A stretch of DNA of 64,000 bases from Abditibacterium sp. (lineage in GTDB: Bacteria; Armatimonadota; Abditibacteriia; Abditibacteriales; Abditibacteriaceae), in the NCBI GenBank assembly GCA_965246885.1, contig OZ251992.1, forward strand, positions 2,752,001-2,816,000, in the 5' to 3' direction. The position numbers are program-made. This document shows positions 26,701-35,700 of this stretch, one piece after another; the stretch's first letter is position 1; the number at the start of each line of letters is the position of its first letter.

Positions 26701-29700
26701 CTTTGGTAGCTCCCTACTCCATTGGCGCGAGCGCCAGAATCGGGAGTGGCGCGCGCGTGGGGCCGGGCGCCGTCGTGGGCGCGCGCACCGTTGTGGGCGA
26801 GGGCGCGCACGTCGAGAAGTCCGTGCTGTTTGACGACGTGTCAGTCGGGCCGGAAGCGCAGTTGTCGGGCTGTATACTCGCTACGCGAGTTCGGGTGGGC
26901 CGCGCCGCGCGCGTCGAAGCGGGCGCCGTTGTGGGCGAGGGCTGCGATGTCGGAGCGGGCGCCATCGTCTCGACCGGCACGCGGCTCGGCCCGCACACCC
27001 CGCTTGCTGCGGGCGCGTTCTTGGAGGGCGTGTTGGAGCCGCGCGCTTCCAAATTGGGAGCTTTGGTGCGCGTCTTGGAAGCGGGCGCCACGCTCGACGC
27101 CCGCACGCTCGACGAGCGCGAAGCCTACGCGACACTCGCCGAAGGCGGCGGTTGGGGCGCCCGCGAAGTCGCCGATGCCACCAACCTCCCGCTTTACCGC
27201 GTGTTGGCAGCGCTGCACGGATTGGAGCGCGCCGAACTTGTCGTTTCCAACGCCTCGCACCCACCGATGTATCTGTTAGCTGGCGCCGAGCACGCCCTAC
27301 CGCGCCGCTTGCTCATCGTTCACCCGACCGAAGTGGGCCGCGAAACGCTGCGCGCCGCGTTTACCGCCGATGGTCATTCCGTGCGCGTCGCGTGCGACGG
27401 CATTGAGGCCGTCGAAGCCGTGCGCGACGAACGCTTTGACGCCATCCTGATGAACGCCGACCTGCCGTCGTTGGGCGGCTGGGACGCGACGCGCCTCATT
27501 CGCGGCATGGCCAATGGCCGCACCGTCGCCGTCATCATGTTCTCCTCCCACCCCGGCGCCGACGACCAAACCCGCGCCCAAGAAATCGGCGCTACGGGCA
27601 TCCTCTCGGCAACGGAACTCCCCGAATCCGTGCTGCCGCAAGTGATGGAATTGCTGGAACGGTAGAAGACTGGGCGCGTGCTGTCATTGGGCCGCCGCGA
27701 ACTTCAGCCCGTTCCAGCGCAGGACTTCTTCATGACTGCTCTGCGAGGTGCCATACGACACCCGCACTTGAAACACCCCATCGCCCCCACGCTCGAAGCG
27801 CGCGCCCTTAAAGTCGTAATCCGAACTTTGATCCGTACCATAGCCGAACGCTTGCACAGCCGCAGCCTTCCTCCAACCGTTGGGGAAGACAACATACACC
27901 CAATCGCCATAGTCCCCATACATCCCGTCGCCGTAGCAGTTGAGGCGGAGCATGGGCGCGGACTTCTTCTTCTCATCGAGCCACAAAAAGCTGGCCCCAA
28001 ACTTTATGGGAGCGTAATGTTCGTGACTTTCATAGCTTACGTCAGCCGAGTTCAAGAGACGCCACTGCTTCCTCCCCTTCGCACGCTCCCATACATCTAA
28101 ATGGAAAGGCTGGACAATGAAACGGTGGTTAATGTCTCTGGCGGCGTCTTTATCCGGTTGGGAATAGAGGTGAATGGCCCGTTCCGTCTGGCCTTTGAGA
28201 TGAACGATCCCGAAGAACAAGGAGTTAAAGGGCTTATGAGCGCCCGCAAGAATGGAAGCAGGAACCGCACGCACGTAGGGAATCGGCGTTGCAACGGCTT
28301 CCGGTAGCTTGTTGGCGTTCTGCGCGCCCGCGCTTACGGCGCTCAGCGCGAGCATTAAAACGAAACACAAGTTCTTCAGCATGGAGAAATAAGAAAAGCC
28401 CGCAGCGTTTCCGTTGCGGGCTTTGTTGGTTTAGTTCTTTCCCTGCGCGCGCCGTTGGGCGCGGTTGAGGGATTCGCGGTTGATGGCGGCGGGGGCGTGG
28501 ACTTGGATGTTGCCTTCGCCGCTCCCGTCATCGGTGGTATCGAGTTGGACGCCGTCGTCTACGCCGTCGTCGTAGGGCAGCATTTGCAGGAGGCGGCCTT
28601 CTTCGAGTTCGGAGTAGTCCATCGTCGGGTCTTCGTTCTCGAAGTCGGGCAGGTCGTAGGCGAAGATGCGCTCGGTCACTTCGCGGCGGATTTCGCCGAG
28701 CATCTTCTGGAAGAGCGCGAAGCCCTCTTGCCGGTAGACGCCGATGGGTTCTTTTTGCGCGTAGCCCTGTTGCCAGATGGCGTCGCGCAAGTAGTCCATT
28801 TCGGCTAAATGTTCCGTCCAGTGTGAGTCAATGGACTTCATGACCTGCCAGCGTTCGAGGCCGCGCACTTGATCCGTCCCGACGGTGTTCTCGCGCTCCT
28901 CATACAGCTTCTCGACCGCTTCCGAAAGGGTGCGTCCGTCGGCCAAGATGAAGTCGTATTCCTCGGCGCCGATGGTGCCGCCCGCGCGCTCTTGCCATGT
29001 CGCGCCTTCGAGGTCGTCCTCTTTGAGTTGGGAGCGCACGGCGGTGAGGCCGAACAAGCGGCCCAAGCCGATCCACAGTTTGTGCGTGTCCCACTCGTCG
29101 GGGCGCACGTCGCGCGGGCAGTGCTTTTGGGCTTCGGCGAGCGCGGCTTTGCCAGCCATATCCAGAACCGTGTCGCGGATGTCCTCTCCCTGCAAAGCGC
29201 GGCGGCGTTCGCGGTAGATGACCTCGCGCTGCACGTTCATTACGTCGTCGTATTGAAGCGTCTGCTTGCGGCCCTCGAAGTGGTTTAGCTCGACCTTCTT
29301 TTGCGCGCGCGCAATGGACGCGGTAATCATCTTCGCTTCGACGGGTTCGTCCTCGTCCCAGCCGCCGAGCAAGAAGCCGCCGCGCGCGCCGAACAAGCGC
29401 CACAGTTCGTCATCGAGCGAGATGTAAAAGCGCGAAGTGCCCGGATCGCCTTGGCGTCCGGCGCGACCGCGCAACTGGTTGTCAATGCGGCGCGACTCGT
29501 GCCGCTCCGTGCCGATGATGTGCAAGCCGCCGTGCCCGGTCACTTCGTCGCGCTCCGATGTGTGCGCGATGTCTTCGGGGCGCGCTTCCGATTCGAGAAC
29601 GATGTCCGCGCTTTGCCCCGCGACGCCGGTTTCGATGCGCACGATACCCGACTCCTCGGCACTCGCCAAGGCCGTCGCGTCCGCTTCGGTTGGCGCGGCG

Positions 29701-32700: not shown

Positions 32701-35700
32701 AGCGCCTTTTCGATTTGCGCGACCAGCCCCGCGTTCGACTCGCGCTTGAACTCGTTCCACGCCTTCCCGTAGTCGTCAATGGCCTTGGCGAGCGGGGCGA
32801 TGGCGGGAGACGTAGTTAACTGCGCGCCGACGAAAGTGTCCAAGCCGCTCGCGCCAAATTCGCCGTCCTCGACCGCGCGCTGAATGGCAGCGCGGGCCTC
32901 TTCAGGCAAGGGCACGAGGCCGTTTACTTTGTCGGCGAACGCGACCGATTGCTCCTGACGCCACGTTTGCAAGCGCGCGGCGCCGTCGGTTGCGATAGCG
33001 GACAGTTCGCCGCCATCTCCCGGCAAGTCGCGCACGACGGCGACCAAGCGGTCGGCAACGGCGTTCTGCCGTCCACCCTCGGCGAGTAAGGAAACGAAGA
33101 CTTTGTTCGCTTCGCGCGGCATTTCTTCGACCCACTGCGCCATTTCTTCGACCATGTGCGCGGCGATTTGCTCGTAAGTCTTACCCTGCTCGCGCTGAAG
33201 CGTCGCGGCGGCTTTGACGGCGAGCGCGAATTGGCCGGATTTGCCCAACTCCTTTTGCAAGGCGGCCTGCAACGTGGGCGCGTCCTCGCCTTGGAGGGCT
33301 AACTTGGCGACGACTTTATTGGGGCCGAGCGCACTTTCCAAGGTGCGGCTCTGCTCCGCCAAAAACGCAGTGCGGCTCGCGCTGTACTCTTTGGTCAGGG
33401 CAGAAATTTGCGTCGCCGCCTCGCCGCCTTGGGCCTCAATGGTCTTGACGACTTCGGCGCGCAATTGCTCACGGGAAAGCGGCAGTTTCGCGGTGTTCCA
33501 CAGCGTTTCTAACGACTCGAACGGCAAGAGCGCATTTTGCGTGAGCGTTTCCAACGCGGCGACCAGCTTACGGACGGAGGCGGCGTCTATACTCCCTCTC
33601 CCGCTCGCGGGAGAGGGGGACGGCGCGTTATCGCGCAGCACTTTGTCCGCCGCCGCGAGGTTGCCGCCTTGCTCCAAGCACGCGAGGACGAAGGCATCGT
33701 GTCCGCTTTGCAGGGCGCTCGCAACGGCTTCGACGGACTCGGAATCCACCAGTTCGCGGTTGCTCATCTCGTCGGCGATAAGGAGCGCGACGGTGCGGCC
33801 CTTGTCGTCGGAGTCAGAGATTTGCCCTTCCAAGTCAATAGCGGCGTCTTCGGGAAGCGTCAGGTCGTGCGCGAGGAGCGCGGCGTTGCTCCACTCGGAG
33901 TCTTGCGCGTTGAGCCACGCGGTCTCGAACGGCGCCAAGAGGCGCCCGATTTCTTCGCGCCACGCTTCGTGCAAGCGTCTGGCATCTACGGCTCCGAGGG
34001 CAAGCGCGTCCAAGTGGGCCTTGCCATCGGGGGAAATAAGTTTGTCGTTCGCCAGTTCGTCGCTCGCATCCAACAAGCGCGCGGCGTTGCTCAAACGGGC
34101 GCTTTCTTCCGATTGGAGATAGGCCGAGATGAGGTAGCCCATCGCTTGGGTGAAGGCGCCGCGCGCCAGAATCGCTTCGGTGAGGCCCGCGATGTCCACT
34201 TGCTTTTTGGTGGAGAAGCGCTCGATGAAGGTTTCGACTTCGCGGTCGGTGACGGCGGGCATGAGGACTTTCGCCACGCCGTCGCAGGTCTTGCTCATCC
34301 CTTGGCGGCGCAGGGCGCGGTCGGTTTTGGCGACTTGGGCGGAAATGATAAGCGGCGTGCGCGCTTCGTCAATGAGGATGTTGTCCACCTCGTCAATGAT
34401 GGCGAACGACAAAGGCTTTTGCACCATGTCGTCGGGCGAAGCGGCCATGTTGTCGCGCAAGTAATCGAAGCCAAATTCCGAGTTGGTGCCGTAGAGGATG
34501 TCGCAGGCGTAGCACTCTTGGCGCTCGGCGGCGTCCATATCGTTCTGCAAGAACGCGACACTCAGCCCCAGAAACTCATAAACGGGCCGCATCCAGTTGG
34601 CATCGCGCTCGGCGAGGTAGTCGTTGACCGTGACGACGTGAACGCCGCGCCCGGTCAGCGCGTTGAGATAGGCGGGAAGCGTGGCGACGAGCGTTTTGCC
34701 TTCGCCGGTGCGCATTTCGGCGATTTTGCCGCCGTGCAACACCATGCCGCCGATTAGCTGAACGTCGAAGTGGCGCAAGCCGATGGTGCGGTCGCCCGAT
34801 TCGCGGCACAGCGCGAAGGCTTCGGGAAGCAGCAGGTTCAGCACTTCCTTTTCGGCGGCGAGGCGGGCGCGCACGTACGCATCCGTCCACGAGAACTGGG
34901 TTTCCAGTTCCAGCCATTCCAAGCCCTGCTTTTGCAGGCGCTCGGTGACTTCGACGCCAAAGCGCTCGCGTAGCGCGAGGGAGCGGGCTTTGAGTTCTTC
35001 GTCGGACAGCGCCTTGATTTCGTCGGCGAGGGCGCCAATTTGCTCGACGATGGGGCGGAGTTTGGCGACCTCTTTCTCGTTTTTGTCGAAGAGTTTGGAA
35101 ACGACGCCTAAGACGCCCTCGGCTTCTTGGGACGAGCCGGAAATATCGGACTTAGAGCCGAACAGTTTTTGTAAGAGTGACATGATGTAAGTGCAAACCA
35201 GAACACAGATAAACGCGGATGGGACACAGAGGAGCCGCAGATGAATAGTTGGATTTCATCTGCGTCAGTGGGCGTTTATCTGCGGTTCAATTCAAACGAA
35301 CTTGGGTTTGCACGCCCGACAAGCGCGCGATGACCGTCGCGGACAACTCGTGTGTCCGACGCGCGCGAATGATTTGCGGGGTGGGAGGCGACGGGGAATC
35401 TGAAAACGCGCCCAGATGCGCCGTCGCCGTCGAAACCCAAAGCGGCGATGGGGAAGTGGTGGGGGGCGTTTCCGCGACTGTCGGGGAACCAAGGTGTGCC
35501 GTTTGCGGCGCGCTCGCTTCGGCGGAAAGGAGCAATAGCACCGACTCGACCGAGGGCGTTCCGGGCGCTGTTGCCCACTGCGCCACTGGCATCGCCCACA
35601 ACGCAAGCAACGCCGCGACGAAAAACAGCGAAGCGTCGGGGCGGCGGAGGCGGGCGAACTGGGCCAACAAGCGAAACATCGGGCGGAGAACTGCCAAAGA

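Follow-up and report, generated by a model that had tools for sequence, protein, structure and literature searches.

We found that SecA, the protein-export motor of this soil bacterium, is ~2.4 times as large as a normal SecA, very probably as a result of two surface loops that expanded when parts of the gene were copied. Duplication within the gene would account for the ~1,220 extra residues, which occupy two sites on the protein surface that are variable in other bacteria too. Site 1, a loop in the bulb of PPXD (the preprotein cross-linking domain), would have grown into an acidic helical domain of ~635 residues built partly of ~70-residue three-helix repeats, with a helical piece of 54 residues added nearby. 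Site 2 lies in NBD2, the second nucleotide-binding domain, at the position of its variable subdomain (VAR). There the first half of NBD2 (approximately residues 1168-1343) would have been copied in tandem; the copy would have lost its catalytic consensus, retained a nearly invariant motif-V-like loop, and later acquired a nested alpha/beta stretch of ~350 residues. Both insertions appear to be older than the radiation of the class and to have been held by purifying selection since. We hold this account of anatomy and origin with high confidence; the explanation as a whole, origin together with a regulatory role, seems to us rather probable.

Gene identity and domain organization

The features below are numbered along the window (the whole 64,000-nucleotide stretch of DNA that was analyzed); residue numbers (res) refer to the encoded protein.

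28431..35183, (-) strand: secA, 2,250 codons plus stop, ATG start, single frame; the genome's only secA
34308..35096, (-) strand: N-terminal part of NBD1 (res 30-292), carrying Walker A and Walker B; Pfam SecA_DEAD 30-291, motifs at least 95% conserved in 59 giants
34254..34307, (-) strand: first PPXD helix (res 293-310), identified by alignment with the corresponding helix in 10 normal Armatimonadota SecAs
32349..34253, (-) strand: insert 1 (res 311-945), predicted acidic orphan all-helical domain with ~70-residue repeats; AF2, self-hhalign, protein search
32241..32348, (-) strand: PPXD middle piece (res 946-981), conserved DEK...LT..G strand region; HMM nodes 36-67, E 0.003, collinear
32079..32240, (-) strand: insert 1b (res 982-1035), helical, invariant Arg cluster; missing from 10 normal SecAs
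31737..32078, (-) strand: PPXD C-terminal half and NBD1 end (res 1036-1149); SecA_PP_bind profile 47-110, 2ipc alignment
31155..31736, (-) strand: first part of NBD2 (res 1150-1343), which contains motif V and the Thermus-type helical sub-insert; putative source unit of the duplication
30708..31154, (-) strand: front piece (res 1344-1492) of the putative copy of the first part of NBD2; blastp, hhalign, AF2
29649..30707, (-) strand: nested acidic alpha/beta stretch (res 1493-1845) within the copy, perhaps winged-helix-like, with about four W-motif repeats; AF2, VIA
29568..29648, (-) strand: end of the copy (res 1846-1872), degenerate yet nearly invariant motif-V-like strand and loop; sequence comparison, 59 giants
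29379..29567, (-) strand: remaining part of NBD2 (res 1873-1935), including motif VI; Pfam, 2ipc and flank alignments
28614..29378, (-) strand: helical scaffold, wing and two-helix-finger region (res 1936-2190); Pfam SecA_SW 1947-2175
28431..28613, (-) strand: C-terminal tail (res 2191-2250) and stop codon, without the zinc-binding SEC-C motif; no PF02810, motif scan

The genome comprises 3,555,033 bases in 2 contigs and is 92.7% complete. One frame bearing SecA_DEAD and SecA_SW was detected, and it scored above the cut-offs of the NCBIfam SecA equivalogs PRK12904 (928.8 vs 814) and TIGR00963 (871.5 vs 800), in agreement with the initial annotation of a sole secA gene of 2,250 residues. Accessory SecA2 belongs to the same domain family; that identity was rejected, as scores fell below the cut-offs of TIGR03714 (573.6 vs 930), TIGR04221 (481.1 vs 725), NF012136 (535.3 vs 1100) and TIGR04397 (707.7 vs 1085), and there was no second copy. 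The Pfam matches given in the annotation were reproduced: SecA_DEAD at 30-291, SecA_PP_bind at 1015-1094 (profile positions 47-110 only), P-loop_SecA in three stretches, the best at 1829-1933, and SecA_SW at 1947-2175. They follow the canonical order of NBD1, PPXD, NBD2 and scaffold/wing. The lack of an intein also stood, with no Hint/intein family at E<=0.1 on the whole protein, none in insert-only scans, and no Rfam intron.

The best solved relative was Thermus thermophilus SecA (2ipc, 997 aa; E 1e-196), to which the giant aligned collinearly in three pieces (114-287, 1035-1341 and 1876-2175). The motifs that we take to be Walker A, Walker B, motif V, motif VI and the two-helix-finger motif were intact in translation and at least 95% conserved at most positions among 59 giant SecAs. 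Judged by its sequence, the giant protein thus appears to be the genuine and sole housekeeping SecA, with its catalytic and SecY-facing elements all intact. The genome search also returned a single SecY frame of normal size (460 aa), trigger factor and SecDF; SecB, a second SecA and a second SecY were not found in this 92.7% complete genome. No conserved neighbor gene accompanied secA, the downstream ORF being present in 10 of 27 family genomes but located elsewhere there. The zinc-binding tail motif was absent from 39 of 59 giants vs 1 of 10 normal relatives, counts that come from related sequences and reflect few events, and basal giants carry the motif alongside the inserts.

Insertions in PPXD

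Insert boundaries were set by alignment with the 10 normal Armatimonadota SecAs. A PPXD HMM built from these sequences matched the giant in three collinear pieces (275-288, 950-981 and 1030-1110). The initial annotation had placed a single insert of ~720 residues in PPXD; the location was right but the size was not, since there are two inserts within PPXD, one of ~635 residues (311-945) and a separate one of ~54 (982-1035). Across 59 giants, insert 1 measured 618-680 aa and insert 1b 52-61 aa.

AF2 models were made of two separate pieces of the giant. Over most of insert 1 the pLDDT was 85-95, and the model shows a unit of one long and two short helices that recurs about every 70 residues. Self-comparison with hhalign gave off-diagonal scores of 56.7 (E 5e-6) and 48.3, vs 23.2 or less in six controls. 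A search of 1.84e9 proteins with insert 1 returned 20 matches, all giant SecAs or fragments of them. Insert 1 is therefore confidently predicted to be an all-helical domain, and no convincing relative emerged by fold or by sequence, as had been proposed. Insert 1b resembled the c-di-GMP-binding MshEN/T2SSE_N domains weakly (VIA Z 6.8-7.3 over 57-60 residues, 20-23% identity), with no Pfam match at E<=10.

Insertion in NBD2

The second insert lies between motif V and motif VI. Its assignment to NBD2 was upheld, whereas its earlier size of ~430 residues was revised to ~530 (1344-1872). Because the flanks map to chain positions 463-510 and 537-592 in E. coli and 451-497 and 501-552 in B. subtilis, the site holds 536 residues here vs 26 and 3, respectively. 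The E. coli chain index runs ~8 below the published numbering, the crystallized construct probably starting at residue 9.

By blastp, residues 1168-1224 matched 1345-1401 (E 2e-7) and 1247-1338 matched 1778-1863 (E 5e-5). Likewise, hhalign of 15-sequence slices aligned source and copy over 131-133 columns (prob 96.9, E 2e-10, score 76.8), vs scores of 17.7 or less in one reversed and five shuffled controls. The copy begins three residues past the end of the source unit, and both have an identical order of helices and strands in the AF2 model. A foreign module at the VAR site was accordingly rejected as an account of insert 2, which by these comparisons appears to be a partial tandem duplication of the first half of NBD2 itself, with the nested stretch of ~350 alpha/beta residues inside it. 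Internal repeats in the nested stretch were weak (E 2e-4 to 6e-3). Its similarity to winged-helix proteins (VIA Z 5.0-6.2 over 75-120 residues) was below the trust level of the tool, and Pfam gave no support for that reading. The stretch varied from 188 to 363 aa among 59 giants; one deep subclade is without ~140-165 residues, and part of it is therefore dispensable.

Distribution and selection

Insert 1 was matched in all 27 Abditibacteriaceae genomes, as was insert 2, and each listed genome had a single SecA_SW match. In 21 of the 27 (our genome included), several of them assembled in 1-3 contigs, insert 1 lay in an open frame of 2,153-2,356 aa, the length range first described; in the others the frame was cut by contig ends, and in one (G023) it was broken by five TGA and one TAA. 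The trait had been regarded as fixed in this one family. Lineage specificity and conservation held, but the limit to one family did not: all 31 genomes of the class, in four families, had it, insert 2 included, and clear insert 1 matches were restricted to class members in a sample of 201 phylum genomes. Likewise, the 34 collection proteins of 2,199-2,293 aa first counted gave way to 58 giant SecA clusters of 2,113-2,350 aa. Giant SecAs were monophyletic (support 1.0), and loss of either insert was seen in none of the 31 genomes or 59 protein clusters. Across these genomes, the giant architecture is fixed in the whole class.

Searches of the protein collections found no relatives of the inserts outside giant SecAs, and neither Pfam, sequence searches of the PDB nor the ESM Atlas yielded any. 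Composition was uniform (GC3 0.78-0.80 in the inserts vs 0.80-0.84 in the core). Both inserts were strongly acidic, with net charges of -31 (insert 1) and -24 (insert 2). Invariant motifs were present in both although class-wide identity drops to 25-37%. Read from the two least saturated sequence pairs, dN/dS reached 0.11-0.13 in insert 1 and 0.09-0.11 in residues 1402-1777, 2-3 times the values of the core regions (0.02-0.09). A dN/dS of ~0.1 places both inserts under purifying selection.

Comparison with other SecA proteins

Thermus SecA shares a helical NBD2 sub-insert of ~70-90 residues with all aligned Armatimonadota SecAs, and this sub-insert lies in the duplicated unit. However, 2ipc is less than half the size of the giant and is without the PPXD insert or the VAR-site duplication. 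The E. coli VAR (~519-547), a proposed regulator of the motor (Das et al. 2012, as cited in the available part of PMC6620043), is likewise lineage-specific and shares its insertion point with insert 2, between motif V and the motif VI strand. The likeness is one of position; insert 2 has ~530 residues rather than ~30, and holds a degenerate copy of the first half of NBD2 with a nested alpha/beta stretch.

Metagenomic SecAs of 1,560-1,670 aa (P0022, P0027, P0029, P0083, P0091, P0117 and P0135) also combine complete domain sets with large lineage-specific additions. These additions differ in being N-terminal, in or after the scaffold/wing, or unrelated in sequence, and the split P-loop_SecA pattern of the giants was absent from those examined. 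P0135 has a gap of ~470 residues at PPXD profile position 49, matching the site of insert 1, and hhalign against the insert 1 profile gave a probability of 0.2. The giant had been called the largest SecA architecture, which does not hold, as P0156 (4,930 aa) and P0157 (4,615 aa) carry SecA_DEAD, PP_bind and P-loop domains. In these proteins, a compact SecA module of ~800 residues (2105-2901 in P0157) lies between long unrelated flanks, whereas the giant SecA is the cell's only SecA and has its own motor domains split open by inserts. SecA-like modules embedded in giant proteins have been described in Omnitrophota and others, according to the accessible part of that report (10.1101/2023.11.21.568195).

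Possible roles of the inserts

Structural decoration is a close rival to a regulatory role, although we consider it unlikely. The inserts would then be neutral duplications in tolerant loops with no role of their own (constructive neutral evolution), conserved only because a misfolding appendage of 1,200 residues harms an essential enzyme. Inserts that arose inside the gene without a recognizable functional domain, a dN/dS 2-3 times that of the core, and a nested stretch of varying length are consistent with decoration. Unrelated large inserts in other lineages, whether at other SecA sites or at the same PPXD position, fit a general tolerance for it, and even the E. coli VAR is only "proposed to regulate" in the available part of PMC6620043. 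However, insert 1 stays at 618-680 aa, motifs are invariant despite 25-37% identity, and one would expect neutral ballast this costly (~3.7 kb in an essential gene) to be shed, yet no loss was seen in 31 genomes and 59 clusters. Purifying selection and constant length are, for their part, also expected if the inserts must merely fold well in an essential protein.

The inserts could instead be an external docking platform that replaces adaptor proteins by binding a partner, for example a chaperone, the ribosome or some of the clients, a reading we consider improbable. Helical-repeat domains and winged-helix-like modules are frequent protein-binding scaffolds, SecB was not found in the genome, and the zinc-binding tail, which binds SecB and ribosomes in E. 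coli (PMC6620043, as far as available), is absent from this protein and from 39 of 59 giants. However, the acidity of the inserts argues against direct binding of acidic lipid or rRNA, secA has no linked partner gene, and the tail motif coexists with the inserts in basal giants. Trigger factor, a SecY of normal size and SecDF are present, so no obvious missing partner needs replacing. Two further readings are close to refuted: that the inserts are what is left of a mobile element such as an intein or a homing endonuclease, or that they are an artifact of assembly or annotation. Faint Foldseek matches to LAGLIDADG meganucleases (E 0.07-0.17, TM <=0.11) were all that favored them. Against them stand the absence of Hint/intein families and Rfam introns, the position of the inserts in loops outside the catalytic motifs, and the homology of insert 2 to NBD2, together with uniform composition, a dN/dS well below 1 and the uninterrupted frame in 21 of 27 family genomes, several with 1-3 contigs.

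PPXD forms one jaw of the preprotein clamp and NBD2 the other. PPXD swings towards NBD2 by 122 degrees and 25 A (available part of PMC7503281), and its movement onto NBD2 is required for SecYEG affinity and ATPase activation (available part of PMC3685266). The authors of PMC6620043 suggest, in the part available, that large SecA loops might act like the regulatory C-terminal tail. Since the inserts sit on the clamp jaws and the swing of PPXD onto NBD2 activates the ATPase, we read them as built-in regulators. That they serve in regulation or client handling, the role we favor, is tentative. They may also hold client, and would not be docking sites borrowed from another protein. In this bacterium, the two inserts would tune clamp closure and nucleotide release from the two jaws of its only SecA, as proposed for the E. 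coli VAR.

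The secA gene and its product

The frame that the initial annotation had taken for the only secA of this genome proved to be so. It is open throughout and uniform in GC and GC3, and it encodes a protein (P0001) with a predicted mass of 247 kDa. Two NCBIfam equivalogs for housekeeping SecA scored 928.8 (cut-off 814) and 871.5 (cut-off 800) against this protein, while every SecA2 model in NCBIfam scored it under its own cut-off. The closest solved structure was that of Thermus thermophilus SecA (2ipc, E 1e-196), to which three pieces of the protein aligned (residues 114-287, 1035-1341, and 1876-2175). 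The genome searched comprises 3.56 Mb on 2 contigs and is 92.7% complete; within it we found this one SecA frame, a single SecY frame of ordinary size (460 aa), SecD and SecF, and no match for SecB. The giant SecA is therefore real on the combined evidence of frame, domain rows, equivalog scores, and sole copy, and the conserved elements of the SecA motor are intact in it. An Rfam scan of window positions 27500-36000 returned no match.

Features of the secA gene and its product
Window 28431-35183, minus strand: secA, open frame of 2,250 codons with an ATG start
Residues 30-291: SecA_DEAD (Pfam)
Residues ~293-310: first helix of the preprotein cross-linking domain (PPXD), after the end of NBD1 (alignment)
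Residues 311-945: insert 1, ~635 residues, absent from the normal proteins in the alignment
Residues 946-981: conserved PPXD strand region (alignment)
Residues 982-1035, window 32079-32240, minus strand: insert 1b, 54 extra residues, followed by the remaining PPXD (alignment)
Residues 1015-1094: SecA_PP_bind (Pfam), profile positions 47-110 only
Three stretches: P-loop_SecA (Pfam)
Residues 1947-2175: SecA_SW (Pfam)

Location of the inserts

The giant was aligned with 14 other giant genes and 10 normal-sized SecA genes from other Armatimonadota families. A PPXD model of 137 nodes, built from the 10 normal proteins, matched the giant in three collinear pieces, at residues 275-288, 950-981 (E 0.003), and 1030-1110 (E 6e-24). 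The insert 1 region therefore lies within PPXD, as had been proposed, but as two inserts rather than the single one first described. Together they give this domain ~690 extra residues, several times the usual PPXD size.

Insert 2 (residues 1344-1872) follows the motif V strand and precedes the strand leading to motif VI. In E. coli SecA its flanks correspond to chain positions 463-510 and 537-592, and in B. subtilis SecA to 451-497 and 501-552; thus, the 536 residues of the giant at this point compare with 26 in E. coli and 3 in B. subtilis. The variable subdomain (VAR) of E. coli SecA is placed at approximately amino acids 519-547 in PMC6620043, and by alignment insert 2 occupies the VAR site. 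The offset of ~8 residues between the E. coli chain index and the published VAR numbering is probably due to the start of the crystallized construct.

Origin and structure of insert 2

Insert 2 is a copy of NBD2, with a front (residues 1344-1492) and an end (1846-1872) separated by a nested stretch. When parts of the protein were compared with each other by blastp, residues 1168-1224 matched 1345-1401 (E 2e-7, 32% identity of 57) and residues 1247-1338 matched 1778-1863 (E 5e-5, 30% of 94). Profile-profile comparison of slices of a 15-sequence alignment paired residues 1168-1298 with 1345-1488 at a probability of 96.9, E 2e-10, and a score of 76.8; no control (one reversed, five column-shuffled) scored above 17.7. 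The copy starts three residues past the end of the source unit and therefore bears the signature of a tandem duplication. Its final strand and loop are a degenerate motif V that is almost invariant across the clade.

AlphaFold2 was run on residues 1150-1935 with 15 sequences (mean pLDDT 74.2, pTM 0.44). The order of helices and strands was identical in the source (model residues 18-154) and the copy (model residues 195-343), the latter having a pLDDT of about 80-89. The nested stretch (residues ~1493-1845) was modeled as helices and strands between the second and third strands of the copy. It contains weak internal repeats about a Trp-containing motif (E 2e-4 to 6e-3) and gave weak VIA matches to winged-helix proteins (Z 5.0-6.2 over 75-120 residues), under the level at which VIA advises trust. 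A profile search with the nested stretch returned two shorter matches alone, both SecA fragments, and Foldseek comparison of the NBD2 piece with the PDB returned only SecA (2ipc) chains at E<=0.001. Within the copy, P0001 has an Arg-rich run at approximately residues 1434-1441, a near-invariant short motif amid a fast-evolving acidic insert and a candidate contact site.

Structure of insert 1 and insert 1b

Insert 1 is, from its predicted structure, an orphan helical-repeat domain. The AlphaFold2 model of residues 285-1110 (mean pLDDT 77.3, pTM 0.58) was all-helical in insert 1, with a pLDDT of 85-95 for most of residues ~364 to 924; a ~30-residue helix followed by two short ones recurs at a period of ~70. 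When the insert 1 profile was compared with itself, off-diagonal alignments scored 56.7 (E 5e-6, offset ~134) and 48.3 (offset 72); none of six controls exceeded 23.2. The profile had 20 matches at E<=0.001 in a set of 1.84 billion representative proteins. Two were full-length (2,221 and 2,147 aa), both with SecA domains; the other 18 (71-901 aa) were mostly aligned from residue 1, like fragments cut by contig ends.

Other searches for relatives of insert 1 yielded nothing convincing. The best sequence-profile match in the PDB had E 0.04, Foldseek against the PDB returned no rows at E<=0.001, and the best VIA match (Z 8.2 over 120 residues) was to generic long helices. Comparison by hhalign with insert 2, PPXD, NBD1, NBD2, and the scaffold gave a best E of 0.013. 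For the insert sequences alone and all 15 members of the insert alignments, Pfam produced scattered rows at E>=0.004 only, and the ESM Atlas held no usable match to insert 1 or insert 2. Insert 1 has a net charge of -31 and the nested stretch of insert 2 one of -24, with comparable acidity in three distant relatives. Close to its end in P0001, insert 1 has a run rich in Leu, Glu, and Arg (residues ~866-886) that is near-invariant within this fast-evolving acidic insert and is another candidate contact site.

The AlphaFold2 model of insert 1b showed a likeness to the MshEN/PilF GSPII-B c-di-GMP-binding domains. The VIA matches were weak (Z 7.3 and 6.8 over 57-60 residues, 20-23% identity), and Pfam T2SSE_N had no match in insert 1b even at E<=10. 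Insert 1b contains an invariant Arg cluster.

Conservation among genomes

Insert 1 and insert 2 were each matched in all 27 genomes of the family Abditibacteriaceae. The insert 1 match lay inside an open frame of 2,153-2,356 aa in 21 of them; in the remaining 6, the gene was cut by contig ends (n = 5) or contained in-frame stops (n = 1). In this last genome (G023, C12:520077-524680), the giant secA is split into several frames by 5 TGA and 1 TAA codons. This bin (79% complete, 4% contamination) may hold a pseudogene, or the stops may stem from sequencing error or hint at read-through of TGA.

Among 201 genomes sampled from the phylum, those with insert 1 were the 19 family members and G181, which belongs to another family in the same class (31% identity, 2,259-aa frame). 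A marginal match of 75 residues elsewhere in the sample (E 6e-4) was taken for chance. Most of the sample's SecA frames from outside the class measured about 930-1,260 aa; one reached 1,580. A class-wide search matched insert 2 in all 31 genomes, drawn from four families; judging from source labels (Abditibacteriaceae, Abditibacteriota), the class is apparently Abditibacteria. The architecture is thus fixed in the family as initially annotated, but it is not confined to it. A collection of 5.8 billion proteins held at least 58 clusters of 2,113-2,350 aa among the best 120 of 6,813 long SecA matches.

In core-column trees, one of them from FastTree, the giants were monophyletic (support 1.0). 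Duplication within the gene gave rise to the inserts before the class diversified. Across 59 giants, lengths were 618-680 aa for insert 1, 141-152 aa for the front of the NBD2 copy, and 188-363 aa for the nested stretch. A deep-branching subclade (P0004, P0074, P0077, and P0078; 2,113-2,158 aa) is missing ~140-165 residues of the nested stretch (corresponding to residues 1527-1565 and 1612-1717); lineages thus differ in how many repeat units the stretch contains.

Both inserts are maintained by selection. In the two least saturated of seven gene pairs, dN/dS (Nei-Gojobori) was 0.11-0.13 for insert 1, 0.09-0.11 for residues 1402-1777, and 0.02-0.09 for core regions; across all seven pairs, insert 1 ranged from 0.11 to 0.31.

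Tail motif and neighboring genes

The SEC-C zinc-binding tail motif was present in 9 of the 10 normal Armatimonadota SecAs and in 20 of the 59 giants, including all deep-branching ones. The 39 giants lacking it span several separate subclades, including that of this genome. The loss fits a regulatory load moving to the inserts, although the events are few and the sequences related.

Genes near secA
Window 38786-40300, minus strand: trigger factor (504 aa; Trigger_N, FKBP_C, Trigger_C), 3.6 kb upstream of secA on the same strand
Window 27684-28382, minus strand: 232-aa ORF without a Pfam family, 49 bases downstream of secA
Window 25959-27665, plus strand: 568-aa unusual fusion of sugar-nucleotidyl-transferase, hexapeptide, TrmB-like helix-turn-helix, and response-regulator receiver

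No conserved secA neighbor was found: relatives of the 232-aa ORF occur in 10 of the 27 family genomes at other loci, often in several copies.

Discussion

SecA is among the best-studied molecular motors, and its core of ~900 residues is usually treated as almost invariant. We found no paper on the giant architecture in the open-access papers and preprints searched, and as far as these reach, the partial duplication of NBD2 is undescribed. 

Known lineage-specific SecA loops include VAR, the Thermus-type sub-insert of NBD2, and the "large loops" mentioned in PMC6620043. Among metagenomic proteins, we noted oversized SecAs of 1,562-1,640 aa (P0022, P0027, P0029), 1,632-1,650 aa (P0083, P0091, P0117), and 1,667 aa (P0135). 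Some combine an N-terminal extension of 300-370 residues with ~500 added within or beyond the scaffold/wing region; others have ~700-800 added within or beyond that region. SecAs of 1,560-1,670 aa differ from the giants in where the additions lie, except P0135, which has a gap of ~470 residues at the same PPXD profile position as insert 1, filled with unrelated sequence. P0157 (4,615 aa) has a compact SecA module (residues 2105-2901) between long flanks, whereas the extra mass of the giant is within the motor domains. P0156 (4,930 aa, labeled Omnitrophota) also has an embedded compact module, along with helix-turn-helix families. Very long proteins of this kind are described in a 2023 preprint (10.1101/2023.11.21.568195). 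Given the lengths of P0157 and P0156, the giant is not the largest SecA architecture, as had been supposed; among what we have seen, it is the largest case of extra mass inside the motor domains of a cell's only SecA.

What the inserts do may be approached through the movements of the motor. PPXD moves from the wing domain onto NBD2, a step needed for high-affinity SecYEG binding and ATPase activation (PMC3685266); the swing has been described as covering 122 degrees and 25 A (PMC7503281). VAR has been proposed as a regulator of E. coli SecA, and large loops have been suggested to behave like the regulatory C-terminal tail (PMC6620043). PPXD and NBD2 form the preprotein clamp, and the giant carries one large appendage on each jaw; the ancestor shared by all giants seen already had both appendages. 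We therefore favor, tentatively, the view that the inserts are built in to modulate how the clamp closes and nucleotide is released, and that they perhaps also hold clients. A close rival, itself rather doubtful, is that they are inert decoration with no role of their own.

The initial annotation, which was partly right overall, had read the inserts as a docking platform. Docking of an outside partner seems unlikely to us, as the inserts are acidic, no partner gene is linked, and trigger factor, SecY, and SecDF are all encoded. A bolder version of built-in modulation, which we consider improbable, is that the inserts are complementary halves of one device: the helical domain of PPXD would meet the pseudo-NBD2 and nested repeats over the clamp at its closure, forming an acidic antechamber that would retain unfolded clients and control the release of ADP. 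If true, this SecA would have a built-in holdase and regulator, which would explain how the zinc-binding tail could be dispensed with and why members of the clade have lost it on several occasions.

A whole bacterial class depends on a 247-kDa SecA whose second motor lobe includes a degenerate duplicate of one of its own halves. It clearly illustrates how an essential enzyme can gain domains through duplication within its gene and not by fusion. If the inserts are inert, they are a measure of the ballast that the translocation cycle tolerates. If they regulate clamp closure or nucleotide release, the class would offer a natural experiment on the PPXD swing and on control at the VAR site.
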